DNA of 64,000 nucleotides from an uncultured Planctomycetia bacterium (GTDB lineage Bacteria; Omnitrophota; Gorgyraeia; Tantalellales; Tantalellaceae), in the NCBI GenBank assembly GCA_964527555.1, contig CAZGOG010000002.1, positions 41,698 through 105,697 on the forward strand. Direction: 5' to 3'. Shown piece after piece: positions 19,093 through 55,056 of the stretch. The position numbers were made by a program, and so were the translations under genes. The notes beneath the pieces were generated by a model that did not search any database, was not told the DNA's origin, and was given only the letters and a program-made list of their open reading frames with translations. Each line of letters opens with the position of its first letter. The stretch's first letter is position 1.

Positions 19093-19110
19093 GTTTAGAT
19101 TGTCTTTAAC

Positions 19111-19233
19111 GTGAAGCTCCATGGGCTAACGCCCATGGCATCCACAGTTTCAGTCTTTCCGTCAAGCGGAATCCTGCACCGAAGGCCATTCATCCACGCC
19201 CTTACGGGCGTGGCCTTCCGGTGCATGGGCAAA
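19111..19233 (+). repeat. 123-bp structured interspersed repeat, copy A (orientation gtgaagctcc...catgggcaaa)
   Basis: Read directly. Near-identical to 43978..44100 and to the reverse complement of 39128..39250 and 53179..53301. Contains hairpin ccatgggc-taac-gcccatgg and a nested hairpin tgcaccgaaggcc[attcatcc acgccc-ttac-gggcgtgg]ggccttccggtgca. Confidence 0.9.
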
Positions 19234-32360: not shown

Positions 32361-32393
32361 CCGGCTAATCTCGCTTTTCATATCACACCGCCT

Positions 32394-36817: not shown

Positions 36818-37117
36818 TCACTTGGCTTCTCTGACTTCCAGGATCCTTACGCCTTCCGGAAGTTCCCGGTTGAGAGCCTCTTTAATCTCAAGGTGAGGCC
36901 GCTCAGTAAGCCAGAAACTCATCTCTTCCCTGTCGCTCTGGCAGCCAAGCTTGAGAGCCTTCGGCATACTTATCTTTACGTGTGGTGAAAAGCCTTCCGT
37001 CAAAACAAAGGCCAGTCCCGTACGGCGGATGGCCCTGCGAATAAGAGTCATGAGGTCCAGATGCGAAATATAGACCATATCACCCTTCTTCTCAAAGACA
37101 GCATCGTATCTTATCAT
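36818..37117 (-). CDS. DUF2344/TIGR03936-like protein (radical-SAM-linked, rng-associated)
   Basis: ORF 36818..37198 trimmed to MIRYDAVFEKKGDMVYISHLDLMTLIRRAIRRTGLAFVLTEGFSPHVKISMPKAL... The YISHLDL...R..R...P...S.GF.P..KIS pattern and position immediately upstream of rng match the radical SAM (TIGR03960) - DUF2344 - rng module, recalled from memory. Confidence 0.55.
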   Translation of the reverse strand: MIRYDAVFEKKGDMVYISHLDLMTLIRRAIRRTGLAFVLTEGFSPHVKISMPKALKLGCQSDREEMSFWLTERPHLEIKEALNRELPEGVRILEVREAK

Positions 37118-37402
37118 GATCTTATACCGGCTTTCCCTCACATCAAAGCTAAAGAGACAGGCATAAAAGAAAACTACTATTCTCTCGGCAGCCTGCAAAG
37201 TAATAAAGCTTAGCGTCTTCTGTGAACGCTTCTTTCTAGGGGGAGGGGTGATTGAAAAAATATAAAGCCTATTAAGTCAAGACGTCTCGCGAAACACATG
37301 CTAACTATAAAAACCTTTTATCATCTTCGCCTTTTGAAAAGCCAGTCTTGTCTTCTGCCCTCTACCCTCGTCTGCCGGCGATAAACTTCTGCCCCTTAAG
37401 CG

Positions 37403-39166
37403 CTACTTCTTCTTCCTGAAATCCAGCCAGGGCGCGTATTCCCTCTTGGGCTGCACCGCTTCGGTGTTTCCTACAGGAACTTCTACCTGTTTCTGGGTGG
37501 TTTTCAGCTTCCCCGTCATAAGCACGGGGGCTGTTTCGGTTTCCTCGGCGCTTTCTTTCTGCGTTATGTATTTATCAAAGTGCGGCTGGGTCTCGGAATC
37601 AGCGATGGAATCCATGGCGTCTTTCACCAGGTGCACCGTGACGAAAAATACGATCTCAGTTCTTCGGATTTCTTCGGATTCGTATTTGAAAAGACTTCCC
37701 AGAACCGGTATGCCACCCAAAAGGTCGCCCAGTATCGGGAGTTTATTATCCTCTGTCACCAGCTCTTTCCGTATAAGCCCCCCCAGGAAAATCGTGTCTC
37801 CGTCTCTCACCCTTATGATCGTGTTAGCCTCCCTGGAATTAAACGTAAGGGCCACTGTTCCCTGCTGGGCCGCTCCGGCAAGCGTGAGCACGCTAAAGCC
37901 TTCGTTATTAGAGACTTCCGGCAGGAGATTGACGGAGATGTCCCCTTCTTCGTTGACATGGGGGATCACCACGAGCTTCACGCCGACTTCCCTGGCATCC
38001 TCTATATCTTCAAATTGAACGGTAACGGTCGTGGAGGTATCTGTACTCTGCAGCGCCTCCTGCAGCATTATTTTCTGGATTACCTTTATAGTGGCTCTTT
38101 GATTATTCAATGTCGTTATACGGGGACTTGAAAGTATCTCGGAATCGCCCCTCTGGTCTATAAGCGCCAGAGTCGCGGTAAAGGTACTAAAGTCCAGGTA
38201 ACCATACGTGAACAGATCCGTGCCGGCGAGAGCCTGGGCAACCGCGGGGATACCTGTATCCGTAATCCAGGGAAAAGTTGGAGCAAATCCTCTTCCTCCT
38301 GTCGAAGGATAATACTTCTCATCCGGCGCACCGTTTAAAAACGGCAAGGTCCCGTCGTTTTTAAAGGGAAAGGTGATCGGCTTTTTAGCCCCGGCAGCCG
38401 TTATTACCGCGTTCCAATCCACGCCGAAACGTTCGTCCTCGTTTAAGAGGATCTCGACAACTTTCGCATCAAGTATGATCTGGGGGGTCTTCTTGTCGAT
38501 CTTGCTTATCATCGTTTTGATGTCGCTTATGCGCGCGGGTATCGCCGTTATCACTATGGAATTAACGCTTGAGATATATGTGGCTTTTTCGCCCTGCCTG
38601 GGGTTAAGGATTGAGTTGATCGCCGTCATCAGCTGGTTGATGCTTTCTTCCTTCTGCTCTACAAGCACCTCTTCATTGCCTTCTTCCGTTTTGGTCAGCT
38701 CAATATCACGTATGAGGTGATTTAAGGGTATGACCTCTGTCACGGGCTCTTCCGCGTGAAGCTGTCCTTTGGGTATGACCCTTATGATGTCGCCCTCGCG
38801 TGAATAGACGTATCCGTAGTTTCTTGTCACGATGTCAAGTGCCACTTCCCAGGGTTTGTTCCTTAGACGCATGGTGACCAGGCCCTCGACTCCGGGAGAC
38901 GGGATTATATCGACCCCGCTTACCTCGGAAAGGTAATGAAGGACTGTCTTTATATCCACATCCTTGAAATTGACAGTCACGTTCCCGGCTTCGGCCAAAG
39001 GCTGGCCTATATCCTCTTTGACCGGGGATGTTTGGGCAGCACCCGCAGGTGAAACATTCACCTGGGCATATGAATCCACTATTAGCAGCGAATTCATAAA
39101 TAAAATCGCAACAACTGGCGCAAGAACTTTTACCCATGCACCAGAAGGCCACGCCCGTAAGGGCAT
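37403..39166 (-). CDS. pilQ: Type IV pilus secretin PilQ
   Basis: Secretin N-domains (VTVNFKDVDIKTVLHYLSEVSGVDII) and a C-terminal secretin domain (GDTIFLGGLIRKELVTEDNKLPILGDLLGGIPVLGSLFKYESEEIRRTEIVFFVTVHLV). The long ORF starts at 39271 inside repeat copy B. The plausible start is an ATG at 39166 (MPLRAWPSGAWVKVLAPVVAILF... signal-like), also inside the repeat. Start uncertain. Confidence 0.85.
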   Translation of the reverse strand: MPLRAWPSGAWVKVLAPVVAILFMNSLLIVDSYAQVNVSPAGAAQTSPVKEDIGQPLAEAGNVTVNFKDVDIKTVLHYLSEVSGVDIIPSPGVEGLVTMRLRNKPWEVALDIVTRNYGYVYSREGDIIRVIPKGQLHAEEPVTEVIPLNHLIRDIELTKTEEGNEEVLVEQKEESINQLMTAINSILNPRQGEKATYISSVNSIVITAIPARISDIKTMISKIDKKTPQIILDAKVVEILLNEDERFGVDWNAVITAAGAKKPITFPFKNDGTLPFLNGAPDEKYYPSTGGRGFAPTFPWITDTGIPAVAQALAGTDLFTYGYLDFSTFTATLALIDQRGDSEILSSPRITTLNNQRATIKVIQKIMLQEALQSTDTSTTVTVQFEDIEDAREVGVKLVVIPHVNEEGDISVNLLPEVSNNEGFSVLTLAGAAQQGTVALTFNSREANTIIRVRDGDTIFLGGLIRKELVTEDNKLPILGDLLGGIPVLGSLFKYESEEIRRTEIVFFVTVHLVKDAMDSIADSETQPHFDKYITQKESAEETETAPVLMTGKLKTTQKQVEVPVGNTEAVQPKREYAPWLDFRKKK

Positions 39167-39250
39167 GGATGAATGGCCTTCGGTGCAGGATTCCGCTTGA
39201 CGGAACCCTGAAACTGTGGATGCCATGGGCGTTAGCCCATGGAGCTTCAC
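39128..39250 (-). repeat. 123-bp structured interspersed repeat, copy B (reverse-complement orientation)
   Basis: The reverse complement of 39128..39250 aligns end-to-end with copy A, with only a few transitions and a 1-nt indel. Lies between pilP and pilQ and overlaps the pilQ 5' end. Confidence 0.9.
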
Positions 39251-39310
39251 TATTCGACTAAATTTTTTCATGTTCCCCCCCCATTACGAATTTAAAAACC
39301 GTACTTCTTT

Positions 39311-42107: not shown

Positions 42108-43976
42108 CTATGGTTTACTTTTCCCCTCCGATATGATCTTTCGCATAAGTTCGGCCGGTTTTTTAAAACCGGGGTCGCACATGATTGCTTTTTGAAGATA
42201 CATCTTTGCCTGTTTTTCTTCTCCCCCCGCGAGAAAAACCTCCCCAAGATTATAAAAAGCAAGCGGCCTCTCGGGATAAAGTTTTGCGGCTTCCAGATAA
42301 TAAGTCGCTGCCTCAGGCAGATACCCCATACGGCTATATGCGGTGCCAAGATTGATAAGGGCATTGTAATCGTACGGCTTGATCCTGTATGCTCTTTTAG
42401 ACACTTCGAGAGCTTTTTCATCTTCCCCGCTCTCCGAATAGATGGCACCAAGAATAAGAAGCGCTTCAGAGTGCCTGGGGCTCATCTCAAGCACTTTCTC
42501 CAAATAGTTTATTGCGGCTGTCTTATCACCCCGCTTAAGCTCCACCAAAGCCATCCCCACATATGCGTCAAAATTATCGGGGTCGATAGCAAGCACTGTT
42601 TTAAAATCGCGTTCAGCTTCATCCGCCGCTCCCGAAGCAAGCTGCCACCTTCCTCTTAAATAAAGCGCTGCCGCATCGCCGGGCCGGGTCTCTACATAAG
42701 AGTCCATCTCATCCAAAGCCTTCTGGTTTATTTTACCTTTTTTGGATGATACGGCTTTGTAGAACATGGCTGAATCATCTTCTTTTGAAAAAGAAAGTAC
42801 TCGGCCGCTTAAAGATTCGCTCGTCTGCCAGTATTTAGTCTGGGCTATCGTTATGCTCGCAAGGGTGGCAACGATAACAAGAACGCCTCCGGCAATAAGA
42901 TATTTTGACGGCTTTCCTCTTCTTTCATAAACTTCAGTAAGCGAAACTGACACAAAAAGAAATGCCCCGTAGCTGGGAAGGTAGAGCCAGTGTTCCGCGA
43001 ACACTTTGAGGCCAGCCGCCACAAAAAGAAAAGGAACAAGACTTATAAGAAAAAACCCCAATGAAAATACCAGGAGGCGTCTTGAGCCTTTCAGATAAAA
43101 AACGAGGAAGATGATTATGGCGAGAGACGCGATCACGAGGGGGTCCGCCTGTTGTAAAAAAGTGCCTGCCCTTCTCACATGAAGAGCCGCGGGAAAAATC
43201 ACCAGGAGAAAAAACTCTTTAACTATCTCGAAATATTTAGCTGATGCCTCCTCGAAACCAGCAAGCTTTATAACGGTGTGATACCTCCCCCCGAAAAAGA
43301 GGTAATGCGCCAGCGCATATACCCCGCAAAGAAGAAAAGCCGGCACCTGACTTGTCATCCTCTTTTCTCTGAGAACTAATATGCTCATCAAAAGAAGCAG
43401 AAACGGAAAAATAAGCGCCGTTTCCTTTGAAAGAAGCGCAAGCGCCAGAGAAAAAACGCTTGCGGCAAGAAAGATCGGTTTTTTTAATTCTACGTATCTC
43501 ACGTAAAAAATCATGTACAGAAATCCGAACAAAAAGAAAAGCAGGTCCGCCCTGCTGGAGATATATGCTACTACTCCGACATAGGCGGGGTGGATTATAA
43601 ATAAAAGAGAAGCAAGCAATGCCGGCGCCTTCTTGCGCGCAAGCTCCAGCGTCAAATAAAAAACTAATAGACCGTTAAAAAAATGTAGAAGGATACCTGT
43701 AATATGAAACCCCAACGGATTCATCCCCCACAGCCGGTAATCCAAAGCGTAAGTGAGCATCTGCACGGGCCGGTAATAGATAGAGTATATGAAACTGGAG
43801 TTTATTACATCCTGCTTGAATACCTGAAAGGACGCTAAAGACGCGCGAATCTGGGGGTTTTCAAGAACTATGAACTTATCGTCCCACACAAAACCGGCAC
43901 CAGTGACATTGCCGTACGAGACCGCTGTTGCGGTAAGAAGAAGTAACGCTATAAGAATATTTTTACGTGTCAGCAT
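42108..43976 (-). CDS. Multi-pass membrane protein with GT39/PMT-like (DUF1736/TMTC-like) N-terminal region and C-terminal TPR repeats
   Basis: ORF 42108..44099 trimmed to the ATG at 43976, immediately after repeat copy C. The longer TTG-initiated ORF would translate the repeat. N-terminal motif GFVWDDKFIVLENPQI plus ~11 TM helices, then 6-8 TPR units (AAALYLRGRWQLASGAADEAERDFKTVLAIDPDNFDAYVGMAL...). Confidence 0.7.
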   Translation of the reverse strand: MLTRKNILIALLLLTATAVSYGNVTGAGFVWDDKFIVLENPQIRASLASFQVFKQDVINSSFIYSIYYRPVQMLTYALDYRLWGMNPLGFHITGILLHFFNGLLVFYLTLELARKKAPALLASLLFIIHPAYVGVVAYISSRADLLFFLFGFLYMIFYVRYVELKKPIFLAASVFSLALALLSKETALIFPFLLLLMSILVLREKRMTSQVPAFLLCGVYALAHYLFFGGRYHTVIKLAGFEEASAKYFEIVKEFFLLVIFPAALHVRRAGTFLQQADPLVIASLAIIIFLVFYLKGSRRLLVFSLGFFLISLVPFLFVAAGLKVFAEHWLYLPSYGAFLFVSVSLTEVYERRGKPSKYLIAGGVLVIVATLASITIAQTKYWQTSESLSGRVLSFSKEDDSAMFYKAVSSKKGKINQKALDEMDSYVETRPGDAAALYLRGRWQLASGAADEAERDFKTVLAIDPDNFDAYVGMALVELKRGDKTAAINYLEKVLEMSPRHSEALLILGAIYSESGEDEKALEVSKRAYRIKPYDYNALINLGTAYSRMGYLPEAATYYLEAAKLYPERPLAFYNLGEVFLAGGEEKQAKMYLQKAIMCDPGFKKPAELMRKIISEGKSKP

Positions 43977-43977
43977 A

Positions 43978-44100
43978 GTGAAGCTCCATGGGCTAACGCC
44001 CATGGCATCCACAGTTTCAGTTTTTCCGTCAAGCGGAACCCTGTACCGAAGGCCATTCATCCACGCCCATAAGGGCGTGGCCTTCTGGTGTATGGGCAAA
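43978..44100 (+). repeat. 123-bp structured interspersed repeat, copy C
   Basis: Same orientation as copy A with ~10 substitutions, mostly C>T transitions that convert G-C pairs into G-U wobbles in the nested hairpins. Lies between pilA1 3' end and the TMTC-like gene start. Confidence 0.9.
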
Positions 44101-44495: not shown

Positions 44496-44643
44496 TCGAT
44501 TTATCATAAAACCGTTTAAACGAAGACACATATTAAGAATAAGTTAACTTAAGTTTAGTATACCTTAATATGATAAAAAAGCAAATCAAGTACGAAATTT
44601 TGATAATAGCGGATTCGAAGAGTAAAAAGGTTAGAATAAAAAA

Positions 44644-44674
44644 GAAGAGGGCGATTTTTAAATCGCCCTCTTCT
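44644..44674 (-). terminator. Rho-independent terminator downstream of pilA2
   Basis: Minus-strand reading: GAAGAGGGCGAT-ttaaaa-ATCGCCCTCTTC hairpin (11-12 bp GC-rich stem) followed directly by CTTTTTTATT. Located 30 nt after the pilA2 stop. Confidence 0.75.
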
Positions 44675-44703
44675 CTAGATCTCACGCTTGCTGGAACGAA
44701 CCT

Positions 44704-45051
44704 TTACGGTAATTTGTGCTTATCACCGTCTTCGTTCGGGCATGTCGGAGGCGTATTAAGAGCATTGACATTGTAATCAGACCCGTCAGTAGGACAAGTC
44801 GGTGTCGATTTGATATAATCAGGCACCAGATCCCCTATGTCGGGAGTCCCCGTATTGCCATCCAAGGCCCATAACGTTTTAGCGCCGTCTATCTGCTTTA
44901 AGTTAGCGATACAGGCTTTGTTCTGGGCGGCTTCACGAGCCTTTATAAAGTTTGGTATGGCAATAGCAGCCAATAAACCTATAATTGCGACAACGATCAT
45001 GATCTCAACAAGTGTGAAACCTCCTTTACCCAAATATTTTCTCATCTTCAT
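44704..45051 (-). CDS. pilA: Type IV major pilin paralog 2
   Basis: ORF 44704..45099 trimmed to MKMRKYLGKGG|FTLVEIMIVVAIIGLLAAIAIPN. SD aaggaggtg 7 nt upstream of this ATG. C-terminus (DLVPDYIKSTPTCPTDG...CPNEDGDKHKLP) is nearly identical to paralog 1, a tandem duplicate. Confidence 0.85.
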   Translation of the reverse strand: MKMRKYLGKGGFTLVEIMIVVAIIGLLAAIAIPNFIKAREAAQNKACIANLKQIDGAKTLWALDGNTGTPDIGDLVPDYIKSTPTCPTDGSDYNVNALNTPPTCPNEDGDKHKLP

Positions 45052-45270
45052 ATCTCTCACCTCCTTCCTTTTACAGTCTCGAGGGCGGACTAATTGCACC
45101 GCTCTACTTTAAAGTATACCTTCATATCTTATCTAAAGCAACCTACCTCCAGAAAACTATGTTTCTAAATCTACATTCACCTAAAGTATGCATTCCGAGT
45201 ATTAATTTTGTATTAATTTAAAATTAATTTTGTGTTAAAAACCGCGCTTTTATGCCGCAATCCTAGCGGA

Positions 45271-46491
45271 TTAAAACTCGATTAACGTCCCCATCTTGAA
45301 TATGGGCAGAAACATAGAGATAACAATACCCCCTATGATCACACCCAGAAATACTATAACAAAAGGCTCGATTAAGCTGGTGAGGCTGTCAACTGTAGAA
45401 CTGACCTGGTCATCATAAAAATCCGCTATTTTAGAAAGCATCTTTTCCAGCTCGCCGCTTTTCTCGCCTACGGATATCATGCGGGTGACAAGCGGCGGGA
45501 ATATCCCGCTTTTCTCCATGGGGGTTGCGATGCTTTCCCCTTCCTTGACGCTCTCTTTTACCGCGTAAACCGATCTTTCGACGACCACATTACCGGCGGT
45601 TTTAGCGACGATCTCAAGCGCAGAAAGTATCGGAACACCGCTTCTGACAAGAGTGCTGAGCGTACGGCTAAACTTACTGATAGCGACTTTCTTGAACAGG
45701 GGGCCGAATACGGGCAGCTTCAGTTTCAGGCCGTCAAATGCCAGTCTCCCCTGCGCCGTGTTAATGTACCACTTAACACCGGAACCTACGCCGATAACTC
45801 CTATTGCGAGCAGCCAGAAAGAACTTCGCACTATGTCGCTTACGTTTATCAGAAACTGTGTAGGTCCCGGCAGTTCCGCGCCAAAACCGGAAAACATGTC
45901 TTTAAAAACGGGTATGACCCTCAGGATCAATACAAATGTTATTACCAGAGCCAGAAAAGAAACAACGGCGGGATACACCATCGCCGATCTTATCTTTCTT
46001 TGAAGGGAATGCGTCTTCTCCATATACGTGGCGACCCTTTCCAGAACCTCATCCAGCATACCGCTTGATTCGCCTGCTTTTACCATGTTCACAAAAAATT
46101 CAGAAAAAACAGAACTGTGTTTTGCCATGGCATCCGAAAGACTGGCCCCGGTATTGACAGAGTCACGTACGTCCAATATCACTTTCTTAAAACGGGCATG
46201 CGCTACCTGATCACCCATCGTATCAAGCGCATTGACGATGGTGATCCCCGCCCCTGTCATGGTCGCCATCTGTCTTACAAATATGACAAGTTCATCCATG
46301 GGCACTTTTCTTCTACTGGAAGACATTAAAGAAGAGATGATTGATTCCCTCTTTTTGAGCTCATCTATTCTTATCATGAGCATATCTCTGCTGCGGATTA
46401 CTTCGATGGCGGATTTCTTGTCAGGCGCTTCCAGATCACCCCTCATGGTACGCCCTTCCTTGTTCTTTGCTACATATGCGAATTTTGGCAT
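45271..46491 (-). CDS. pilC: Type IV pilus inner-membrane platform protein PilC (GspF family)
   Basis: 406 aa. Two GspF-type repeats (MATMTGAGITIVNALDTM ... LSTLVRSGVPILSALEI), 3 TM segments. Confidence 0.9.
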   Translation of the reverse strand: MPKFAYVAKNKEGRTMRGDLEAPDKKSAIEVIRSRDMLMIRIDELKKRESIISSLMSSSRRKVPMDELVIFVRQMATMTGAGITIVNALDTMGDQVAHARFKKVILDVRDSVNTGASLSDAMAKHSSVFSEFFVNMVKAGESSGMLDEVLERVATYMEKTHSLQRKIRSAMVYPAVVSFLALVITFVLILRVIPVFKDMFSGFGAELPGPTQFLINVSDIVRSSFWLLAIGVIGVGSGVKWYINTAQGRLAFDGLKLKLPVFGPLFKKVAISKFSRTLSTLVRSGVPILSALEIVAKTAGNVVVERSVYAVKESVKEGESIATPMEKSGIFPPLVTRMISVGEKSGELEKMLSKIADFYDDQVSSTVDSLTSLIEPFVIVFLGVIIGGIVISMFLPIFKMGTLIEF

Positions 46492-46541: not shown

Positions 46542-48254
46542 TCAAGTAACTCTCAAAACTTCCTCTAAAGTGGTCCATCCCTTGATAAACTTCATCATCG
46601 CATTATCACGCAAAGTCCTCGTGCCTTTTGTCCTCAAATACTCCCTTATCTCGCCTTCGGAAGCCTTTTTATCTATCATCTTTTTTATCCGGTCATCTAT
46701 AAGAAGCGTCTCGAGTGTCCCAAGCCTGCCGCTGTAACCCGTGCCGCTGCACCTCGGACACCCTCTTCCCTTATAGAACTTACCCACACCCCGGGCTTCG
46801 GGATACTTTTTATGCATTTCGTCTATCATCTTTGCCGGTATCTCCGCTTCGACCTTGCAATGCGGGCATATCCTTCTAAGAAGTCTCTGGGCACATGCCA
46901 TGATGAGACTCGCCCCGACAAGGAAGGGTTCAATACCCATATTCTCAAGACGCGTGATCGCCCCGACCGCATCGTTCGTATGCAGGGTGCTTAAGACCAT
47001 CTGCCCTGTAAGCGAAGCTTTGATGGCTATATCCGCGGTCTCAAAATCTCTTATCTCTCCCACCAGGATAACATCCGGGCTCTGGCGCAGTATCGCCCTC
47101 AAGCCGCTGGCGAAGTCCAGTCCTATTTCAGGCCGGGCTGCTATCTGGGTTATGCCGGCAACCTGGTACTCAACGGGATCCTCCACAGTGATTATGTTCC
47201 GCTCGGGAGTATTCATCTCGTTAAGCACCGAATAAAGCGTGGTGGATTTACCGCTGCCGGTGGGGCCTGTGACCAGTATTATCCCAAAGGGCCTCGAAAG
47301 CGCTTCCTTGAAATCAGCCAGAGGTTCCGGCAAAAACCCGAGAGACTCAAGCCCAAGAGAGAGACTCCCCTTGTCAAGCGCCCTCAAGACTATCTTATTG
47401 CCGAAACTTATGGGAAGCACGGAAACGCGGAAATCTATGTCTCTTTTCTCAAGTTTTATGCGGAACCTTCCGTCCTGCGGCACCCTCGTCTCCGTGATGT
47501 CAAGAGTAGACATTATTTTCAGACGCGCTATTATCGCGTTCTGGTTCTTCTTCGGCAGGTCGAAAACGCTGTGAAGCTGTCCGTCAATGCGATAGCGGAT
47601 CCTGAGCGATTTTTCCTGAGGTTCAATATGGATATCACTGGCTCTTTTCTTGATCGCCTCGCTTATTATAAGATCGACCATCTTGACAATGGGCGCCGCC
47701 GTACTTTCTCTGGTTATCTCCCTTACGTCAAGGCCTTCCTCCCTTTTAACAACTTCTACGTCAGATCCGCCTGCCTCCTCGTCCATGATGGTGGAGATGT
47801 CGACCTCTTCTTCAACCTCATAAAAGGCGCGCAGGACCTCCTGAAGCTCCTTACGGGTGGCCAGAGTCAGTTCCACGTCACAGCCCGTTACGGTCTTGAC
47901 ATCGTCTATCGCATAAACGTCAGTAGGGTCAGAGACAATAAGCGTCATATCCTTGCCGATCTTGGACAGTGGCACTACAGAATGACGCCGGGCCACTTTC
48001 TCCGGCACCAGGCTCATCGTATCATCATCCAATACAACTCTTGAAATATCTATAGGGGGGATATTTAATTCACCGCTTAACGTTATTAAAAGATCGTGGT
48101 CTGAGACGGCTCCGCTTTCGGAAAGCGCTTTTATTATGTCGCTTCTGTTTTTCCTCTTGAGCTCGTTATCGAGCTTGTTCCGCGTCTCTTCGTCTATCAG
48201 CCCATTGTCCCGCAAGGCTTTCAGTATCCTGTCTTTTATTAGAAGTTGTGTCAT
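46542..48254 (-). CDS. pilB: Type IV pilus extension ATPase PilB (GspE family) with N-terminal MshEN/T2SSE_N domain
   Basis: 570 aa. Walker A GPTGSGKSTTLY, Asp box, His box, tetracysteine CPHCK...CPRCSGTGYSGR. N-terminal GSPII_E_N-type domain. Confidence 0.85.
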   Translation of the reverse strand: MTQLLIKDRILKALRDNGLIDEETRNKLDNELKRKNRSDIIKALSESGAVSDHDLLITLSGELNIPPIDISRVVLDDDTMSLVPEKVARRHSVVPLSKIGKDMTLIVSDPTDVYAIDDVKTVTGCDVELTLATRKELQEVLRAFYEVEEEVDISTIMDEEAGGSDVEVVKREEGLDVREITRESTAAPIVKMVDLIISEAIKKRASDIHIEPQEKSLRIRYRIDGQLHSVFDLPKKNQNAIIARLKIMSTLDITETRVPQDGRFRIKLEKRDIDFRVSVLPISFGNKIVLRALDKGSLSLGLESLGFLPEPLADFKEALSRPFGIILVTGPTGSGKSTTLYSVLNEMNTPERNIITVEDPVEYQVAGITQIAARPEIGLDFASGLRAILRQSPDVILVGEIRDFETADIAIKASLTGQMVLSTLHTNDAVGAITRLENMGIEPFLVGASLIMACAQRLLRRICPHCKVEAEIPAKMIDEMHKKYPEARGVGKFYKGRGCPRCSGTGYSGRLGTLETLLIDDRIKKMIDKKASEGEIREYLRTKGTRTLRDNAMMKFIKGWTTLEEVLRVT

Positions 48255-48261
48255 CTTACAA

Positions 48262-49998
48262 TCATCCTGTCTCTTTGTCTCCGAGAGTTATGCGCAAGAC
48301 ATCCTCAAGAGAAGCAACACCGTCGATCACGTTTTCTATGCCGTTTTCCCTCAGTGTAGTCATCCCGTCACACCTGGCGGCTTTTTCTATATCAGCCGCA
48401 TCGGCTTCTTTAAATATAAGATCCTTTATCGCGGGGGTCAGTATAAGACATTCTATGATACCGAGTCTGCCCTGATATCCGGAATTTGCGCATCTTTTGC
48501 ATCCCTTAGGACGATAGATCTTCATGGGAGATGAGTCCCTGTCAAGAAGGCCGTATTTCTCGGCAACCTCTTTCGGCGGAAAATACTCTTCCTTGCATTC
48601 GGGACATAACTTTCTCAGAAGTCTCTGCGCCGCTATAAGTTCCACGGAAGCCGCAATAAGGAAAGGTTCTACTCCCATATTTATCATCCTCACGATCGCC
48701 CCGCTTGCGGTATTGGTATGGAGAGTGCTTAAGACAAGGTGCCCGGTAAGCGCGGACTTGATCGCGACGTCCAAGGTATCGAAATCCCTTATCTCACCCA
48801 CCATGATAACATCCGGGTCCTGTCTTAAAATCGAACGCAGAGACCCCGCAAAAGTAAGCCCTATATCCTCTTTTATTGAAACCTGGTTAATACCTTTAAG
48901 CTCGTATTCTACGGGGTCTTCCACGGTGATCAGGTTCTTTTTCGGATCGTCCACATGCTTAAGTATGGAATACAAGGTCGTGGTCTTCCCGCAGCCGGTA
49001 GGCCCGCAGACAAGGATCATTCCGTGAGGCCTTTCGCTGGCGGTGCGTATCTTCTCTTTATCCTTTTCTTTGAAACCCAAAACATCCAGGTCTATCTTGG
49101 CATACTGCCGATCGAGTATTCTAAGGGCGGCTTTCTCGCCGTAGCTTGAGGGTACTATGGAGACCCTGAAGTCTATCTTTCTGCCTTCGACTTTTATCCT
49201 GAACCTGCCGTCCTGGGGCAGGCGCCTTTCAGCGATATCAAGGTTAGACATGACTTTAATGCGCGATATTATCGGCTGGTGGAACTTCTTGCTGGGCGCG
49301 TATCGTTCAAATAACGTGCCGTCTATACGGTAACGCACTCTGGACTTGTTCTCCATCGGCTCTATCAAAACATCGCTGGAACGCTCCTTGACGGCCTTGC
49401 TTAATATCGTGTTGGTAAGCTTGACCACAGGCGCTTCTTCCGTTATCTTAAGTAGATCTATCGAGGAGAGATCCTCTTCCTCGCCGGAGACCATCTGCAT
49501 CTGAGAGCTTTCTATGTCGTCCACTATGGCGCTTATCTCTTCGTCCGCCGACTTTTCGTAATACTGCCGGAGAGCATCTTTCATCTCATCTTCAGCGGCA
49601 ATAACGGGGCTGACATTGAGCTTGGTCATGATCTTGATGTCATCGAGCACGAATATGTTCAGAGGATCGACCATGGCAACCGTAAGCTGCTTGCCTATAC
49701 GCGAAATCGGCAGTATCCCTTCCTCAAGCGCGGTCTTCTTGGGTATAAGCGCGAGCACCTCATCCTCGATTTTAAGACTGGAAAGCTTAACCGGAGGGAA
49801 TCCCAGTTCTTCACTCAAGGCCGTTAAAAGGTCATCCCTTGACAGCGCATGCATTTCGACCAGCGTATCGCCTATATTGCCCCCTTTTTTCGTACAGGCT
49901 TCCTCCGCCTTTTTAAGGTCCTCTTTGGTGATAAGTCCCTTCTTAAGGAGAAGGTCACAAATCTTTTTAGTAAGTGAAAGCGGCATCTTTACCAGCAC
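48262..49998 (-). CDS. Second PilB/GspE-family secretion ATPase paralog with N-terminal MshEN-like domain
   Basis: 578 aa. Walker A GPTGCGKTTTLY, CPECK...CKRCANSGYQGR, N-terminal T2SSE_N-like domain. In tandem with pilB. Confidence 0.8.
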   Translation of the reverse strand: MLVKMPLSLTKKICDLLLKKGLITKEDLKKAEEACTKKGGNIGDTLVEMHALSRDDLLTALSEELGFPPVKLSSLKIEDEVLALIPKKTALEEGILPISRIGKQLTVAMVDPLNIFVLDDIKIMTKLNVSPVIAAEDEMKDALRQYYEKSADEEISAIVDDIESSQMQMVSGEEEDLSSIDLLKITEEAPVVKLTNTILSKAVKERSSDVLIEPMENKSRVRYRIDGTLFERYAPSKKFHQPIISRIKVMSNLDIAERRLPQDGRFRIKVEGRKIDFRVSIVPSSYGEKAALRILDRQYAKIDLDVLGFKEKDKEKIRTASERPHGMILVCGPTGCGKTTTLYSILKHVDDPKKNLITVEDPVEYELKGINQVSIKEDIGLTFAGSLRSILRQDPDVIMVGEIRDFDTLDVAIKSALTGHLVLSTLHTNTASGAIVRMINMGVEPFLIAASVELIAAQRLLRKLCPECKEEYFPPKEVAEKYGLLDRDSSPMKIYRPKGCKRCANSGYQGRLGIIECLILTPAIKDLIFKEADAADIEKAARCDGMTTLRENGIENVIDGVASLEDVLRITLGDKETG

Positions 49999-50001
49999 CC
50001 C

Positions 50002-50460
50002 TTAATTTATTTCTTTGGATTGTTTGTAGAGCCTGTTCAAAGCTTCCGATATAGACGTAACGGTACTTATGAAGACCTGGACCTTTCTTTTTGTGAGCAT
50101 CGCAAGATCCTCGATAGCTTTTTCGTTAAGCGGGTTCGACATCGCAACCGTAAGGATGTTTCCCATACAATCGATGGGGACTATACTGTACTGTCTGGCG
50201 ACGTTCTCCGGCACGATATCGGCCATCTCTTTTTTAAGTTCGTAATTTTCCAGAGGAAGATAAGGAAACCCGTACTGAACGGTAAGCGCCTGAACTATAT
50301 CCCGCTCGTTCGCATACCCCAGTTTAACCAGTATCTCGCCCAAAAGCCCCCCCTCGCTTCTCTGGAAGTCAAGCGCTCTCTGAAGCTGGTCCGTGGAAAT
50401 GACCTCGTTACGCACCAGTATCTCTCCTAATTTTTCTCCTACACGTTTTTCAGGCGTCAC
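50002..50460 (-). CDS. Standalone MshEN (T2SSE_N) domain protein, putative c-di-GMP receptor
   Basis: 152 aa. Two copies of the MshEN c-di-GMP-binding motif, KLGEILVRNEVISTDQLQRALDFQ and LLGEILVKLGYANERDIVQALTVQ, followed by the second half of a GSPII_E_N fold (IVPENVARQYSIVPI...LTVAMSNPL). No ATPase domain. Confidence 0.7.
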   Translation of the reverse strand: MTPEKRVGEKLGEILVRNEVISTDQLQRALDFQRSEGGLLGEILVKLGYANERDIVQALTVQYGFPYLPLENYELKKEMADIVPENVARQYSIVPIDCMGNILTVAMSNPLNEKAIEDLAMLTKRKVQVFISTVTSISEALNRLYKQSKEIN

Positions 50461-50502
50461 TTTTCTCTCCTAACCATATGTGTTAACGTTGATAAAAACA
50501 GT

Positions 50503-51564
50503 TTATCCGATCACTTTAATCAGTTCCTCCACGTCGGATGACCTTGCAAGAGCGTTCTCTTTTGTTATCAGGCTTTTGGCATAAAGCTCAGCCAGAGCCT
50601 GGTTCATCGTCTTCATGCCCACCTTCTGGGACGTCTGGATAATGGAATATACCTGGTGCTCTTTACTGTCACGTATCATGCTTCTAACGGCAGTGTTGGT
50701 CACCAGGACCTCAGTTGCCAGGACCATGCCCGGCTTATCTTTGCGGGGCAATAGCTGCTGCGAGAGGATACCGAGCAGCACAAACGCAAGCTGTGCCCTG
50801 ACCTGCCTTTGCTGATGTGATGGAAAGACGTCTACCATACGGTTTATCGACTGGGTGGCATCTGAAGTGTGCAGGGTCCCCAGCACAAGGTGTCCGGTGT
50901 CGGCAATGATAAGCGCCTCCTGTATGGTCTCCAGGTCCCGCATCTCTCCCACCAGTATAACATCCGGGTCCTGCCGGAGCACAAACCTGAGTGCATTCCT
51001 GAAAGAGTAGGTATCTTCGAGTATCTGCCTCTGATCGATAACGGCCTTTTTGTTCTTATGGACAAATTCGATCGGGTCTTCAACCGTCACGATATGACAG
51101 TTACGTTTGGAGTTGATCTCATCCACCATAGCCGCAAGGGTCGTCGTCTTGCCGCTGCCGGTAGCTCCGGTAACAAGGATAAGCCCCTTCTGATAAGTGC
51201 AGAATCTTTTTACCACCGCTTCGGGCAGGCCGCATTCGGCGATACTCATGATCTCGACAGGGATCAGCCTTATGGCGCAACCGACGCTGCCCCTCTGGAT
51301 GAAGGCATTACCCCTGTACCTGCCCACCTTCTCTATGGACAAGGAAAAATCAAGTTCCTTTTCCCTTTCAAACTTTTTTATCTGCTCTGCGTTTATGAGG
51401 CTGTACACAAAGTCTTTAGTCTGGTCCGGGGAACAAATCTTTTCATCCACCTCTACCAGCTCATTGTGGATGCGGTAATGCATGGGACTGTTGGCGCTGA
51501 TATGAAGATCCGATGCCTTCTTCCCGGGCATGGCCTCGAGTATCTTTCTGATATTATCCTTCAT
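50503..51564 (-). CDS. pilT: Twitching motility ATPase PilT
   Basis: 353 aa. Walker A GATGSGKTTTLAAM, PilT-specific AIRLIP and GMxTxxxxLxxL-type C-terminus, no N-terminal GSPII_E_N domain. Confidence 0.9.
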   Translation of the reverse strand: MKDNIRKILEAMPGKKASDLHISANSPMHYRIHNELVEVDEKICSPDQTKDFVYSLINAEQIKKFEREKELDFSLSIEKVGRYRGNAFIQRGSVGCAIRLIPVEIMSIAECGLPEAVVKRFCTYQKGLILVTGATGSGKTTTLAAMVDEINSKRNCHIVTVEDPIEFVHKNKKAVIDQRQILEDTYSFRNALRFVLRQDPDVILVGEMRDLETIQEALIIADTGHLVLGTLHTSDATQSINRMVDVFPSHQQRQVRAQLAFVLLGILSQQLLPRKDKPGMVLATEVLVTNTAVRSMIRDSKEHQVYSIIQTSQKVGMKTMNQALAELYAKSLITKENALARSSDVEELIKVIG

Positions 51565-51591
51565 CTTTTCCCCTTCGCTTAAAGATCTTTT

Positions 51592-53007
51592 TTACTCGCC
51601 TACTACTTTGTTCTTCCCCGCGGCTTTGGCTTTTTCCACATACTCACGGGCTCTGGCCATGATCTCTTTCGCGTTTACCCCGTCAATGGGATTTTCACTT
51701 ACGCCTATACTGACTGTGATCCTGTCGCCTGCCTCGCCGGAAAGCTGCATCTCTTCCACTCTCCTGCGTATCTCCTCCGCCATTTCAAGGCTTTCCCTTT
51801 TATTCTTCTCCGGTGAAAGTATCCCGAATTCAGCCTCTTCAGCTCTTGCGACCTTGCCGACTGGAGGAACGGCTCCGCTTAAGAGCGAACCCAATTTTTT
51901 AAGGACCTCTTCGCTCTTCGCCTTACCGTGACTTTTGGAGTACTGGTCAAAATCATCCACCTCTACCACCATCAGCGAACAGGGCCGCTGATAATAAACG
52001 GCCCTGTTGATCTCGTCTTCCAGGCGGTCTTCAAGATAACTGAGTGAATAAAGCCCGGTAACGGGGTCAACAACGTCTATGCTTTCCACTCTCCTGAAGG
52101 CCTGGGCGCTCTGATAGCCGAGGACTACTTCCTTCTCGAAGGCCCTTAAGGAGTCTATCTCCTCTTCATCGAACTCAAAATCTTTAGTGAAACTGCCGAG
52201 GAGGATGACCCCCACTATATCGGAAGCTACCTTCATGGGGAAAAGAAGGACATTCATATCATCCCCGAGGCTTTCTTTCATTTCTTTCTGCCAGAATTTA
52301 GCGGGCGGGCGCGAATCGATGAAAAGGTTATCGTGCTTAAGAAAATGTTTTTCCAGAGAAGGCATCTCTACCACCAGACTCGGAATATCAATATCCCTGC
52401 CGGAATCGTTATAGAAAGACTCCTGCGAGTATTTCCCGCCGGGCCCTTTTGTCAGGATAATGCAGAATCCCCCGTAAAGCTCGTTTGCCAATTTTTCCGA
52501 AGCGAAATCAGCGATTTCCTCAAAAGTCGCGCCGGAGGAGATCATATCGCCCAGTTTCATGAGGTTTGTAAGCGTGAGGACTTTTCTGTGGATACTGACG
52601 TTTAAAGCCGCGGTTTTTTTGCTGTATTCCTGCAGCTGCCCGATATAACCGCGGATCCTGCCCGTCATGGTGTTGACGGCGCTGGCTATATCTCCCAGCT
52701 CGCCCTCCTCCTGTGTCGGCACTCTGGCATCGTACTGGCCGCTGGCTATGACCTTCGTCTCAAAAGCAAGTTCTATGACGGGGCCTATCAGCTGCTTCGC
52801 GAGCAAAAATCCCGTCCAGGCAACCCACAGGGTAAATAGAATAATGGCGGTTACCTGAACCATGCTATCCGGAGAAACCGGAAAGATATATTGCGTGACA
52901 ACATACGCCATTATGAGAAGAGGGACGATCGACATGAGGGAAAAAGCTATTAAAAGTTTATATTGCAGTCCTTTTCTGCCGACAGACAGGCCCTTAAACG
53001 CTTTCAT
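51592..53007 (-). CDS. Membrane sensor protein with HAMP, GAF-like and degenerate GGDEF (EEAEF) domains
   Basis: 471 aa. Two N-terminal TM helices, HAMP (IASAVNTMTGRIRGYIGQLQ), central GAF-like region, C-terminal GGDEF fold (DPVTGLYS...VDDFDQYS...ITVSIGVS) in which the GG[DE]EF site reads ARAEEAEF. Upstream substrate-binding residues (N, D, GH, GD positions) are also substituted. Confidence 0.75.
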   Translation of the reverse strand: MKAFKGLSVGRKGLQYKLLIAFSLMSIVPLLIMAYVVTQYIFPVSPDSMVQVTAIILFTLWVAWTGFLLAKQLIGPVIELAFETKVIASGQYDARVPTQEEGELGDIASAVNTMTGRIRGYIGQLQEYSKKTAALNVSIHRKVLTLTNLMKLGDMISSGATFEEIADFASEKLANELYGGFCIILTKGPGGKYSQESFYNDSGRDIDIPSLVVEMPSLEKHFLKHDNLFIDSRPPAKFWQKEMKESLGDDMNVLLFPMKVASDIVGVILLGSFTKDFEFDEEEIDSLRAFEKEVVLGYQSAQAFRRVESIDVVDPVTGLYSLSYLEDRLEDEINRAVYYQRPCSLMVVEVDDFDQYSKSHGKAKSEEVLKKLGSLLSGAVPPVGKVARAEEAEFGILSPEKNKRESLEMAEEIRRRVEEMQLSGEAGDRITVSIGVSENPIDGVNAKEIMARAREYVEKAKAAGKNKVVGE

Positions 53008-53055
53008 GAGACACCTCCACGTATAAAATCTTATTTATAAGCGAATAACCTTCTT

Positions 53056-53075
53056 AGTGTAATTAATATTACACT
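53056..53075. promoter_or_regulatory. Palindromic candidate operator AGTGTAAT-taat-ATTACACT upstream of the degenerate-GGDEF gene
   Basis: Perfect 8-bp inverted repeat with a 4-bp spacer, ~50 bp upstream of the start at 53007, in an AT-rich promoter-like region. Confidence 0.4.
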
Positions 53076-53178
53076 ATGGATTTTTGAAAGTCAAAAAACG
53101 CTCTTTAAATTATACGAAATCCAGAAGATCAGAAAAATAAAGGGAAAACGTGAAGGACGCGAAAGACAACTAGCGGAA

Positions 53179-53301
53179 TTTACCCATGCACCAGAAGGCC
53201 GCGCCCGTAAGGGTGCGGATGAATGACCTTCGGTGCAGGATTCCGCTTGACGGAAAGACTGAAACTGTGGATGCCATGGGCGTTAGCCCATGGAGCTTCA
53301 C
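53179..53301 (-). repeat. 123-bp structured interspersed repeat, copy D (reverse-complement orientation)
   Basis: The reverse complement aligns with copy A over its full length. The inner stem carries a compensatory A-T to G-C change. Lies 10 nt downstream of the radical-SAM gene stop and upstream of the GGDEF gene. Confidence 0.9.
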
Positions 53302-53310
53302 CTGACGCAC

Positions 53311-55056
53311 TTATTCTTTAAGACCGCTTTTTATAAATTCTTCTTTAAGGCTGGATTTATCAAGTGCGATTTTTATATGGTCCCACGGCAGGACTTCATC
53401 CAATGAAAACGCGCGTGACGCATAATCGTAGATGTCTAGACCGTTTTCTTTAAAAGCTTCCTGCCATATGGAAAAGTTGAAAAAATCCCTCCATCCGTCC
53501 ATCTTGGCGCCTTTCTGCCATGCCGTTAAGATGACGTTTGCCAGGCGCCTGTCCCCTCTTGAGAGAGACGCTTCCACCAGGGATTGCTCCAGATCGTGGA
53601 ACTCGACCCGCACTTTCCTGGAAGACCCTTTAATGAGTTCGCTCCTTATTCCGGCAAGAGTCTCTATACTTTTCATGCCCGTCCACTGGAGCGGCGTGTG
53701 CGGTTTCGGAATAAAGGAATTTACGCTTACTTTTATCTCGGCGCCGCCTTTTGAGGTTTTTTTTCTTATATCGGAAAGCCTGCGGGCCAGTTTTATTATA
53801 TTCTGGGCCTCGTCACCGGATTCCCTGGGAAAACCTACCATGAAATATAATTTTAGCCGCCGCCACCCGTGCTGAAACGCCACAGAAGCGGATCGGCAAA
53901 GCACTTCAAGGTCTATGTTCTTTGCAAGCGCTTCTCTCATCACCTCGCTTGCGGCCTCCGGAGCAAAAGTAAGAGACGTCTTGCGTATAGCGGAGATCAT
54001 CTCGGGAAGATCATAAAAAGCTTCATCCACCCTCAGTGACGGCACGGATATGGCGACGCCTTTATCTTTAAAATCCTCGGTAAGAGACTTGACCACTTCC
54101 GGTAACTTCGGGTAATTCACGCTTGATAGAGACAAAAGTGCCAGGCGTTCATACCCGGTATATTTGTAAGTTTCGCGCGATATCCTTCTTATCTCGTGGG
54201 GCGTCCTGAGGCGCAAGGGCCCGTTAACGGCGCTCGCCTGGCAGAAACGGCAACGGTTGGGACACCCCCGCATGATCTCTATCGCCATCCTGTCATGCAC
54301 GATTCTAATGAAGGGCACTATCTGTTTGGCGGGATAATACGCCTGTCCAAGGTTTTTAACTACTGCCTTCTCGACTTTTTCCGGGACATCCTCTTCCAGC
54401 GGAGCTGTCCCCAAAAATCTCCCTTCGGAATAACGGGCTTTGTAAAGGGACGGGACGTACACCCCATCGAGCTTGGAAAGAGCTTTAAGCAGTTCTCTTC
54501 TTTTTTTGGTCTTGCTCCCGGCTTTTCTATACTCGTCGACGAAACGGGGAAGCGCTTCTTCCCCGTCACCGATTATGAAAGCGTCGATGAACTTACTCAT
54601 AGGCTCGGGATTGTACGCGGCTGTCCCTCCCGCTATAACCAAAGGTTCTTCATCCTTTCTCTTCTCCGACTCTACAGTCACTCCGCCCAGTTTAAGCATG
54701 CTCAAGACATTCGTATATGTAAGCTCATACGAAAGAGAAAAACCGATAATATCAAACCCGTTTATCGCCCTTCTTGTCTCCAGACTGAAGAGTTTGATGC
54801 CGCTTGAAGTAAGCTCTTGTTCCATATCATCCCACGGCATAAAAACCCTTTCGCACGCGATATCGTCGCTCTCGTTCAAAAGATGATACAGGATGCGCAG
54901 TCCCAGATAGCTCATGCCGACTTCATATGTATCCGGGTATGCCAGGACTACCGAAGTCCTGTCTTTACGGGGACTCTTACGTATGCTGTTAGTCTCCCCG
55001 CCTATATACCGGCCCGGTTTCTGGACTTTTTTGATTATGTCGCTGAATTTATCCAT
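53311..55056 (-). CDS. Radical SAM protein of the rng-associated family (TIGR03960-like; B12-binding-like N-domain + radical SAM core)
   Basis: 581 aa. CxxxCxxC motif in MRGCPNRCRFCQAS. N-terminal VVLAYPDTYEVGMSYLGLRILY region typical of this family. Family name recalled from memory. Confidence 0.7.
   Translation of the reverse strand: MDKFSDIIKKVQKPGRYIGGETNSIRKSPRKDRTSVVLAYPDTYEVGMSYLGLRILYHLLNESDDIACERVFMPWDDMEQELTSSGIKLFSLETRRAINGFDIIGFSLSYELTYTNVLSMLKLGGVTVESEKRKDEEPLVIAGGTAAYNPEPMSKFIDAFIIGDGEEALPRFVDEYRKAGSKTKKRRELLKALSKLDGVYVPSLYKARYSEGRFLGTAPLEEDVPEKVEKAVVKNLGQAYYPAKQIVPFIRIVHDRMAIEIMRGCPNRCRFCQASAVNGPLRLRTPHEIRRISRETYKYTGYERLALLSLSSVNYPKLPEVVKSLTEDFKDKGVAISVPSLRVDEAFYDLPEMISAIRKTSLTFAPEAASEVMREALAKNIDLEVLCRSASVAFQHGWRRLKLYFMVGFPRESGDEAQNIIKLARRLSDIRKKTSKGGAEIKVSVNSFIPKPHTPLQWTGMKSIETLAGIRSELIKGSSRKVRVEFHDLEQSLVEASLSRGDRRLANVILTAWQKGAKMDGWRDFFNFSIWQEAFKENGLDIYDYASRAFSLDEVLPWDHIKIALDKSSLKEEFIKSGLKE

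Follow-up and report, generated by a model that had tools for sequence, protein, structure and literature searches.

How would cyclic di-guanosine monophosphate (c-di-GMP) control a type IVa pilus (T4aP) when the domain expected to bind it is encoded apart from the motors? The question is raised by a pilus gene cluster in the 64,000-nucleotide stretch of contig CAZGOG010000002.1 (GenBank assembly GCA_964527555.1) analysed here, hereafter the window, which belongs to a Candidatus Omnitrophota genome and carries all its pilus-region genes on the minus strand. From 5′ to 3′, open reading frames (ORFs) and Pfam matches give a HAMP-GAF sensor with a GGDEF domain that is predicted to be dead (51592-53007, 471 aa; HAMP and GGDEF by Pfam), a PilT-type retraction ATPase (50503-51564, 353 aa; T2SSE), a standalone MshEN protein of 152 aa encoded by a gene that we call mshEN (50002-50460; PF05157 is its sole Pfam match), two paralogous T4aP extension ATPases, PilBb (48262-49998, 578 aa from a GTG) and PilBa (46542-48254, 570 aa), each with Pfam MshEN and T2SSE matches, and the platform protein PilC (45271-46491, 406 aa; T2SSF and synteny), with which the tightly spaced run ends. 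We hold it reasonably probable, judging from the comparisons described below, that the free MshEN protein acts in trans as the c-di-GMP receptor of this pilus machine, with sensing shifted off the PilB motors.

The 152-aa protein is made up of an N-terminal subdomain, predicted to have four helices and to bind c-di-GMP, and a C-terminal α/β subdomain of the T2SSE_N1 type, and it is the latter that PF05157 matches (E = 5.5e-20, residues 63-149, 88 of the 90 profile positions). Its AlphaFold 2 (AF2) model has helices at residues 11-17, 23-36, 40-47, and 52-62. Among PDB sequences searched with phmmer, Thermus PilF was the best match (1e-42), several of its GSPII repeats being hit, and Geobacter PilB N-domains (8e-29 and 2e-27), Myxococcus PilB (1e-23), and MshE 1-145 (5HTL, 3e-13) were matched as well. 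Specifically, residues 4-118 of the query align with residues 3-117 of the MshE chain at a constant offset of one and without a net gap; thus, the 5-residue spacer between the two binding motifs is preserved. The consensus of these motifs is (R/K/L)LGxxhhxxGhhxxxxLxxxLxxQ, 24 residues in two copies separated by 5 residues. Motif I (residues 10-33; 50362-50433, minus strand) reads KLGEILVRNEVISTDQLQRALDFQ in gapless register with R9-Q32 of MshE, and motif II (residues 39-62; 50275-50346, minus strand) reads LLGEILVKLGYANERDIVQALTVQ after the spacer RSEGG. With L, I, or V accepted at hydrophobic positions, motif I agrees with the consensus at 10 of 11 positions and motif II at 9 of 11. Departures from it occur at residue 19 (E19 for the consensus Gly) and at Y49 and A50, which stand where L, V, or I is expected; I55, at a Leu position of the consensus, still falls within L/I/V.

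The contact residues of MshE, as defined by Wang et al. (2016), could be paired one by one with those of the 152-aa protein: K10/R9, L11/L10, G12/G11, L26/L25, L30/L29, and Q33/Q32 in motif I, and L39/R38, L40/L39, G41/G40, I55/L54, L59/L58, and Q62/Q61 in motif II (152-aa protein/MshE). In MshE, the backbone amides at the Gly in motif position 3 bind guanine, and the G11L and G40I changes abolish binding. The Leu triads (L10, L25, L29 and L39, L54, L58) stack on the guanines, and single Leu-to-Ala changes lower the affinity more than 10-fold. Across the family of the 152-aa protein, G12, Q33, G41, and Q62 are each invariant in 79/79 members, L39 is kept in 78/79, and the Leu-triad positions are L, I, or V in at least 90%. 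In the N1-type subdomain, the segments PENVARQY and MSNPLN are near-invariant. The original prediction, which had been made from the letters of this DNA, described the protein as an isolated MshEN domain with two well-formed c-di-GMP motifs and proposed a profile alignment as a check; the PF05157 match, the register with MshE, and the census of Leu, Gly, and Gln contact positions all agree with that description. Hence, as judged by sequence, the 152-aa protein is a complete MshEN domain in which every known c-di-GMP contact position is present and conserved across the phylum.

The first residues of the two motifs bear on the affinity to be expected. The GSPII-B domain of Thermus PilF binds c-di-GMP with a dissociation constant (KD) of 6 nM, 83-fold tighter than MshEN. 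The work on GSPII-B proposed the extended consensus (R/K/L)LG... and suggested that very high affinity is to be expected where the first residue is hydrophobic. In the 152-aa protein, the motifs start with Lys (I) and Leu (II), the same pair as in GSPII-B. Since this first-position signature is common to both, the 152-aa protein probably binds c-di-GMP tightly.

The two motors present the reverse picture at the ligand site. PilBa and PilBb are 45% identical to each other and match Geobacter PilB structures end to end (E = 1e-153 to 1e-160). Their Pfam T2SSE matches have E = 1e-133 and 1e-136. Across 60-72 PilB orthologues, there is essentially no variation in Walker A or Walker B, the catalytic Glu, the His box, or the Cys4 zinc site, apart from one His-box position described below. 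The Pfam MshEN match in both PilBs spans only the C-terminal α/β subdomain. When the N-terminal regions were aligned with Geobacter PilB and with the free MshEN protein, the motifs read KIC...C and NIG...E in PilBb and RIL...L and DII...E in PilBa. Thus, at position 3, motif I has Cys (PilBb) or Leu (PilBa) and motif II has Gly (PilBb) or Ile (PilBa), residues that correspond to the loss-of-binding changes G11L and G40I of MshE, and the terminal Gln is absent. The full set of both Gly and both Gln residues is found in 79/79 standalone proteins, 0/72 PilBb, and 0/60 PilBa. Both PilBs therefore keep the N1 domain and the ATPase motifs, have lost the Gly/Gln set for ligand contact, and are predicted to be ligand-blind. 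Since the PilB N-domains retain their fold and hydrophobic pattern without these Gly and Gln residues, the strict conservation of the latter in the free protein speaks for a role in ligand binding and not in folding. Of the earlier claim that both ATPases carry N-terminal MshEN-type domains, the domain assignment stands by the MshEN and T2SSE matches; the binding motifs are degenerate in every orthologue examined.

A further feature sets the two motors apart from each other. In 53/60 PilBa sequences, Gln (Q418 here) replaces the initial His of the His box (TGH...LHTN), a residue retained in all PilBb and PilT proteins. From this substitution, the two extension ATPases may differ catalytically or form mixed hexamers.

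Is this arrangement a peculiarity of one genome? In a protein database clustered at 90% identity, the 152-aa protein had 2,725 relatives at E <= 0.001. Among the best 120 of these, nearly all are ~145-165 aa long and 64-100% identical, and wherever an organism is named, it is Candidatus Omnitrophota or one of the genera in that phylum. All the named 145-160-aa standalone MshEN representatives that were checked are Omnitrophota; multi-repeat MshEN-only proteins occur elsewhere, with uninformative taxonomy and gene context. When one genome per species was scanned, a relative was encoded in 197 stretches. We took the best 80 of these 197 and annotated their ORFs with the window proteins; all 80 are Omnitrophota, some of them mislabelled 'uncultured Planctomycetia'. 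The order mreBCD-PBP2-rodA-(radical SAM)-sensor-pilT-mshEN-pilBb-pilBa-pilC-pilins is found almost everywhere the contig extends. The co-occurrence of standalone MshEN with tandem pilB genes, which the original prediction offered as a check, thus holds in essentially all of the 80 Omnitrophota loci, and the compact module with pilT and two pilB genes is conserved phylum-wide. The design is a property of the phylum and not of one genome. Variants were also observed. Locus L067 has no pilT between the sensor gene and mshEN. In the 35%-GC Omnitrophota locus L085 (5922-6800), a transmembrane HAMP-GAF protein without any GGDEF domain precedes pilT-mshEN-pilB. Locus L087 (7489-13051) has the order REC-mshEN-pilB-pilB-pilC, in which REC replaces the sensor. 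On the P0321 contig (ERZ27297570), two free MshEN genes flank the pilB pair and pilT is missing. In L085 and L087, the two variants readable in sequence, the motifs of the free protein are intact and those of PilB degenerate.

The first gene of the cluster encodes the sensor. It had been described as lying downstream of pilT, but on the minus strand its position is 5′ of pilT. The protein has two transmembrane helices, a HAMP domain, a coiled coil, a GAF-like region (~162-309), and a GGDEF domain (313-467). In its AF2 model (predicted local distance difference test score, pLDDT, 82), the two helices are joined with almost no periplasmic loop and residues 162-309 form an α/β domain. The GGDEF fold is well matched, by PF00990 (E = 5.9e-27) and by Foldseek, with target-length-normalised TM-scores of 0.84-0.90 and a root-mean-square deviation of ~2 Å against isolated GGDEF domains. 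In place of GG[DE]EF, however, the window protein has EEAEF (residues 390-394; 51826-51840, minus strand), and the substrate- and metal-binding region (DxD...K..N....D..GH) reads EVDDFDQYSKSHG. The active-site positions are hypervariable in 66 orthologues (SGDEF, SGDTF, DFDEF, DHDEF, and others). Only 2/66 read GGDEF, and these two are without the first Asp of the metal site and without the guanine-binding Asn and Asp. Those Asn and Asp residues are absent in all sensor orthologues, the GGDEF and SGDEF ones included. No orthologue has an RxxD I-site; positions 381-384 are PPVG here, and the orthologue columns hold T/P/S and G/D with no Arg. Sequence evidence therefore marks the GGDEF domain as catalytically dead, as had been proposed on the grounds of a replaced active site, substituted substrate residues, and a missing I-site. 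The concern that a functional GG(D/E)EF had been missed by misalignment was checked and none was found, even the two GGDEF readers being without the substrate residues. On the other hand, the segments PEKNK (399-403) and ENPIDG (438-443) and residues C343 and R335 are invariant, which points to selection for something other than catalysis.

As for the rest of the proposed HAMP-GAF architecture, HAMP is confirmed by Pfam, whereas the window sensor has no Pfam GAF match even at E up to 10. Support for the GAF domain is indirect. Orthologues at 34-38% identity have GAF between HAMP and GGDEF (PF13185, PF01590, and PF13492; GAF, GAF_2, and GAF_3), and Foldseek alignments of the AF2 model to cyclases of the GAF-GGDEF and PAS-GAF-PHY-GGDEF types (4zmu, 5llw) extend over 346-426 columns. 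Orthologues and fold matches thus support a transmembrane-HAMP-GAF-GGDEF architecture. Public records name the sensor and its orthologues (P0126, P0134, P0135, and others) 'diguanylate cyclase'. From its residues, this label is very probably a systematic mis-annotation.

How might these parts work together? With mshEN directly 5′ of pilBb, the free protein would most likely be a dissociable N-terminal sensor subunit of PilBb. It could dock on the PilB hexamer or on the PilM/PilC platform through its N1-type subdomain, and docking would license pilus extension or bias it against retraction. The dead-GGDEF sensor could serve as a non-enzymatic input or scaffold that may pass on a signal perceived by its GAF-like region or hold the receptor close to the base of the pilus. 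The arrangement would most plausibly have arisen by fission of an (MshEN)2-PilB protein or by duplication of a PilB N1 domain, after which the attached N1 domains would have lost ligand binding. Descent from a ligand-binding PilB N1 is suggested by the position of the gene 5′ of pilBb, by the closer similarity of the free protein to Geobacter PilB N1 (102 bits) than to the neighbouring PilB N1 domains (79 and 58 bits), and by the existence of tandem (MshEN)2-4-PilB architectures, in which some repeats bind and others do not. A bolder version, which we regard as possible but doubtful, is that, throughout the phylum, a dissociable MshEN subunit of very high affinity is shared by the two PilBs, both catalytically competent, and possibly by PilT, as a ligand-gated motor selector at PilM/PilC, with the sensor as its signal-dependent anchor; the free protein would then be a soluble 'clutch'.

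Other explanations of the free protein have to be weighed against its role as a receptor in trans. One is that the 152-aa ORF is an artefact or a pseudogene, i.e., the decayed 5′ end of a third pilB or part of an (MshEN)2-PilBb split by sequencing error or readthrough. In this window, the ORF is indeed in frame with pilBb, with one stop codon and a few bases between them. Across 71 loci, however, the frame of mshEN relative to pilBb is random (32/20/19), and the stops TAA, TAG, and TGA are all used; on these grounds, a fusion with pilBb by stop-codon readthrough was rejected. Spacers resembling ribosome-binding sites are present between the two genes, and the operon gaps across loci are mostly 0-30 nt. 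Furthermore, mshEN is a separate gene of ~146-167 aa in 78 complete orthologues, and identical proteins of the 152-aa type recur in independent assemblies. Over the same 50 species, the MshEN proteins have a mean pairwise identity of 58%, and the values for the two PilBs are 57% and 58%, with PilT at 63% and the sensor at 40%; the 58% for MshEN indicates purifying selection. We therefore consider an artefact exceedingly improbable. The original prediction had also raised the idea of a ligand decoy, in which free MshEN would buffer c-di-GMP in competition with the MshEN domains of the PilBs. The intact motif predicts high affinity, and the protein is small, soluble, and co-expressed with the ATPases, as a sponge would be. 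This idea fails because neither PilB has a competent site to compete with in any orthologue examined (as seen from the 0/72 and 0/60 counts and from the effect of G11L and G40I on MshE). Besides, a pure sponge would need no conserved N1-type subdomain, in which PENVARQY and MSNPLN are near-invariant. Such a decoy is very improbable. Competition for a docking site, instead of for the ligand, is possible.

The free protein could also be a structural adaptor that needs no ligand, e.g., an assembly factor that competes or bridges at the docking site of PilB N1 on PilM/PilC, its motif being kept for helix packing. Contacts of N1 (GSPII) domains with the stator or the platform have been proposed, and no c-di-GMP enzymes were seen in the window or in the flanks, as this explanation would have it. 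But the PilBs keep the fold and the hydrophobic heptad pattern while substituting exactly the ligand-contact Gly and Gln residues, which are thus unneeded for folding, and their presence in 79/79 free proteins speaks for ligand binding. We regard the adaptor as unlikely. Finally, the free MshEN protein might act on PilT and so provide this N1-less ATPase with a c-di-GMP-responsive module in trans. In most loci, 0-30 nt separate pilT from mshEN, and nearly every locus retains the two genes as a pair; in Vibrio cholerae, c-di-GMP shifts the balance of extension and retraction via MshE. Against such a retraction regulator, mshEN stays attached to two pilB genes where the cluster is without pilT, and L067 shows no pilT between sensor and mshEN. 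Moreover, to our knowledge, all characterised N1 domains are parts of extension ATPases. A regulator of retraction is accordingly quite unlikely, and the trans-acting receptor of the extension machinery is the explanation that we prefer.

Several points weigh against this preferred receptor role. All the c-di-GMP claims rest on sequence. In the 64-kb window, no gene for a diguanylate cyclase, a phosphodiesterase, or a PilZ protein was found, and a Pfam scan of 30 further proteins returned housekeeping functions. A search with a home-made GGDEF hidden Markov model through ~1.2 Mb of sequence flanking the 80 orthologous loci gave no further ORF with this domain. In the literature and supplementary material on the phylum, we found no mention of cyclases or c-di-GMP in Omnitrophota. 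The case that these cells would produce c-di-GMP has the conservation of the binding site as its sole basis. The partner of the free protein, whether PilBb, PilBa, PilT, PilM/PilC, or the sensor, is read from gene order alone. The GGDEF domain and pilT are not obligatory in the cluster, since one lineage has no GGDEF domain and another no pilT there. Within the protein itself, position 1 of motif I is variable across the family (K35, Q23, T13, R5), and position 10 of motif I is Glu19 instead of Gly. Myxococcus PilB, which is reported to bind c-di-GMP, also has Glu there. The pLDDT of the AF2 model is 82-91 to about residue 50, ~73 over 51-60, and below 50 beyond; its C-terminal half is unreliable because the alignment is shallow.

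The gene calls on which the above comparisons depend are consistent. The ORF coordinates and gene list given in the original prediction passed a re-check by ORF and Pfam, and independent gene calls on the source contig ERZ27256783:k141_1090046 (379,746 bp) agree with those of the window. The likely start of PilBb is the ATG at 49986, giving 574 aa. The intergenic gaps along sensor/pilT/mshEN/pilBb/pilBa/pilC are 27, 42, 15, 7, and 50 nt, of which the 15 assumes that ATG. Both Walker motifs (A and B) of PilT are kept in 75 orthologues, as are its catalytic Glu and His box. On its 5′ side, the cluster is bordered by mreBCD, PBP2, and rodA; a B12-type radical SAM protein (Radical_SAM_N2 by Pfam; 53311-55056, minus strand) is encoded directly 5′ of the sensor gene here, as in most loci. 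On the 3′ side of pilC follow two pilin genes, one of them at 44704-45099 (minus strand) with the N-terminal methylation motif by Pfam, a TPR/PMT_2 membrane protein, and pilMNOPQ. A strong intrinsic terminator lies at 44641-44676, after the first pilin gene, and the terminator scan found none convincing in the cluster before it.

The TPR/PMT_2 protein (42108-44099, minus strand) is a 663-aa multi-pass membrane protein with a weak match to PMT_2, a GT-C glycosyltransferase family, and with C-terminal TPR repeats. It sits between the pilin genes and pilM and is kept there in many Omnitrophota loci. By domain content and position, it is a candidate pilin glycosyltransferase. Farther along, a DUF2344 protein (36818-37198, minus strand) adjoins the RNase G gene, and two ORFs of 390 and 761 aa (31209-32381 and 32394-34679, minus strand), located between obgE and the RNase G gene, match no Pfam family at E <= 1e-5.

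The region upstream of the sensor gene contains the palindrome noted in the original prediction, and it is slightly longer than the 53056-53075 given there: a perfect inverted repeat, TAGTGTAAT-TAAT-ATTACACTA, with 9-nt arms at 53055-53076, i.e., 48-69 nt 5′ of the sensor ATG. It is single-copy in the window, and shuffles gave 0 matches at up to 3 mismatches. A sigma-70-like promoter candidate, TTGACT-17-TAATAT (53066-53094, minus strand, 9 of 12 consensus positions), has its -10 hexamer inside the palindrome and is the only reasonable promoter-like site on the minus strand in this intergenic region. Promoter-like sites number 4 in 500 nt against 1.1 expected, which is evidence at the level of consensus only. 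From its sequence and location, the palindrome is a plausible operator. Its sequence is not conserved in orthologous upstream regions; many of these have other AT-rich inverted repeats, unrelated in sequence, 40-95 nt before the ATG. A conserved operator could therefore not be claimed.

The window also carries four copies of a ~125-nt repeat (GTGAAGCTCCATGGGCTAACGCCCATGGCATCCACAG...GGTGCATGGGYAAA) with unrelated flanks, at 19116-19147 (plus), 39214-39245 (minus), 43983-44014 (plus), and 53265-53296 (minus), the full element being, e.g., 53175-53302 (minus). Three of them lie between genes or at a gene's 5′ end, and the copy at 19116-19147 straddles the start of the ORF at 18235-19122 and the gap before the ORF at 19162. 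The folded RNA of the repeat has a minimum free energy of -58 kcal/mol (z = -5.6). A whole-window Rfam scan, the repeat included, gave no family at gathering score. The repeat may be an element resembling a miniature inverted-repeat transposable element (MITE) or a repetitive extragenic palindromic (REP) sequence, or a small-RNA family. In the longest pilQ ORF (37403-39271, minus strand), the N-terminal 20-60 residues are translated repeat; hence, the true pilQ start is probably downstream of 39214.

How the N1/MshEN domain of PilB couples c-di-GMP to extension is an open question in the field, as the domain is poorly resolved and the ligand does not simply change ATPase rates. The Omnitrophota cluster offers a natural split system in this respect, in which the copy predicted to be competent for sensing is the 152-aa protein and the motor-attached copies are predicted to be ligand-blind. 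With such a split, recombinant proteins allow binding, docking, and motor output to be examined one at a time, which matters as these organisms are uncultivated. Published surveys of Omnitrophota treat the T4aP as a likely host-attachment organelle and do not mention its regulation. Our study provides a first concrete signalling hypothesis for the T4aP of the phylum. If the motor-selector version were true, the 'clutch' would belong to a pilus that is presumed to attach the cells to hosts or prey. The analysis of the sensor also flags hundreds of 'diguanylate cyclase' entries in databases as almost certainly non-catalytic. Already known are MshEN domains, PilB N-domains that do not bind, GGDEF proteins with degenerate motifs, and at least one MshEN protein that lacks an ATPase domain (PA3740). 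What appears to be undescribed is the division of labour, a predicted ligand-competent free MshEN protein beside two ligand-blind PilB paralogues, and the fact that it is fixed throughout a phylum, together with a HAMP-GAF sensor whose GGDEF domain is predicted to be dead. Every functional step in this proposal is an inference.

The N-domain of MshE (5HTL) matches the 152-aa protein in its two subdomains, its two 24-residue motifs with a 5-residue spacer, and all the Leu, Gly, and Gln contact positions. In MshE, however, the domain is fused to its own T2SSE ATPase and the motifs start with Arg/Arg, whereas the 152-aa protein is separate and has Lys/Leu. The Lys/Leu pair is shared with GSPII-B of Thermus thermophilus PilF (8PDK and related structures), where a binding domain likewise neighbours, within one machine, a GSPII domain that is degenerate and does not bind. 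PilF differs in that its three GSPII domains and the ATPase form one chain and in that motif II of GSPII-B is shorter by one residue. In Omnitrophota, unlike in PilF, it is the domain predicted to bind that has been detached, and the ATPase retains the degenerate one. A free-standing protein of the MshEN type without an ATPase domain (MshEN_N plus a divergent T2SSE_N1) is found in P. aeruginosa as PA3740, which has been listed as a c-di-GMP binder and linked to motility. By its description, PA3740 is set apart from our protein: its N1 is highly divergent and the source table gives no pilB operon, whereas here the N1 is canonical and the gene lies between pilT and pilB.

By analogy of function, the closest systems would be the regulatory complex PilB-PilZ-FimX of Xanthomonas and the FimX-PilB interaction of Pseudomonas, where the PilB protein PA4526 itself does not bind c-di-GMP. 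As in the Omnitrophota cluster, a non-binding PilB N-domain, a separate c-di-GMP-binding partner, and a degenerate GGDEF domain occur in one system. The receptor there is FimX's degenerate EAL domain, with or without the PilZ adaptor, in contrast to the MshEN receptor proposed here, and the degenerate GGDEF domain of our cluster is on a membrane HAMP-GAF protein without EAL. For the sensor, Bdellovibrio bacteriovorus CdgA is comparable as a non-catalytic GGDEF protein linked to a type IV pilus. This degenerate GGDEF protein (GVNEF) is a hub or scaffold at the type IV pilus pole of a predator and is reported to bind c-di-GMP, and Omnitrophota have been proposed to be predators or parasites that use T4aP. 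The comparison is limited to the shared GGDEF fold. Our sensor has no RxxD I-site and has a different, predicted transmembrane-HAMP-GAF architecture. In E. coli, the GGDEF protein DgcJ physically contacts the MshEN-domain protein NfrB, which is a precedent for contact between the sensor and the MshEN protein. DgcJ is an active cyclase whose activity is required, and the output of NfrB is a glycosyltransferase, while the sensor here is predicted to be dead and the output would be a pilus motor. Considering the DgcJ-NfrB and CdgA precedents, a scaffold or anchor role of the Omnitrophota sensor would be reasonable.

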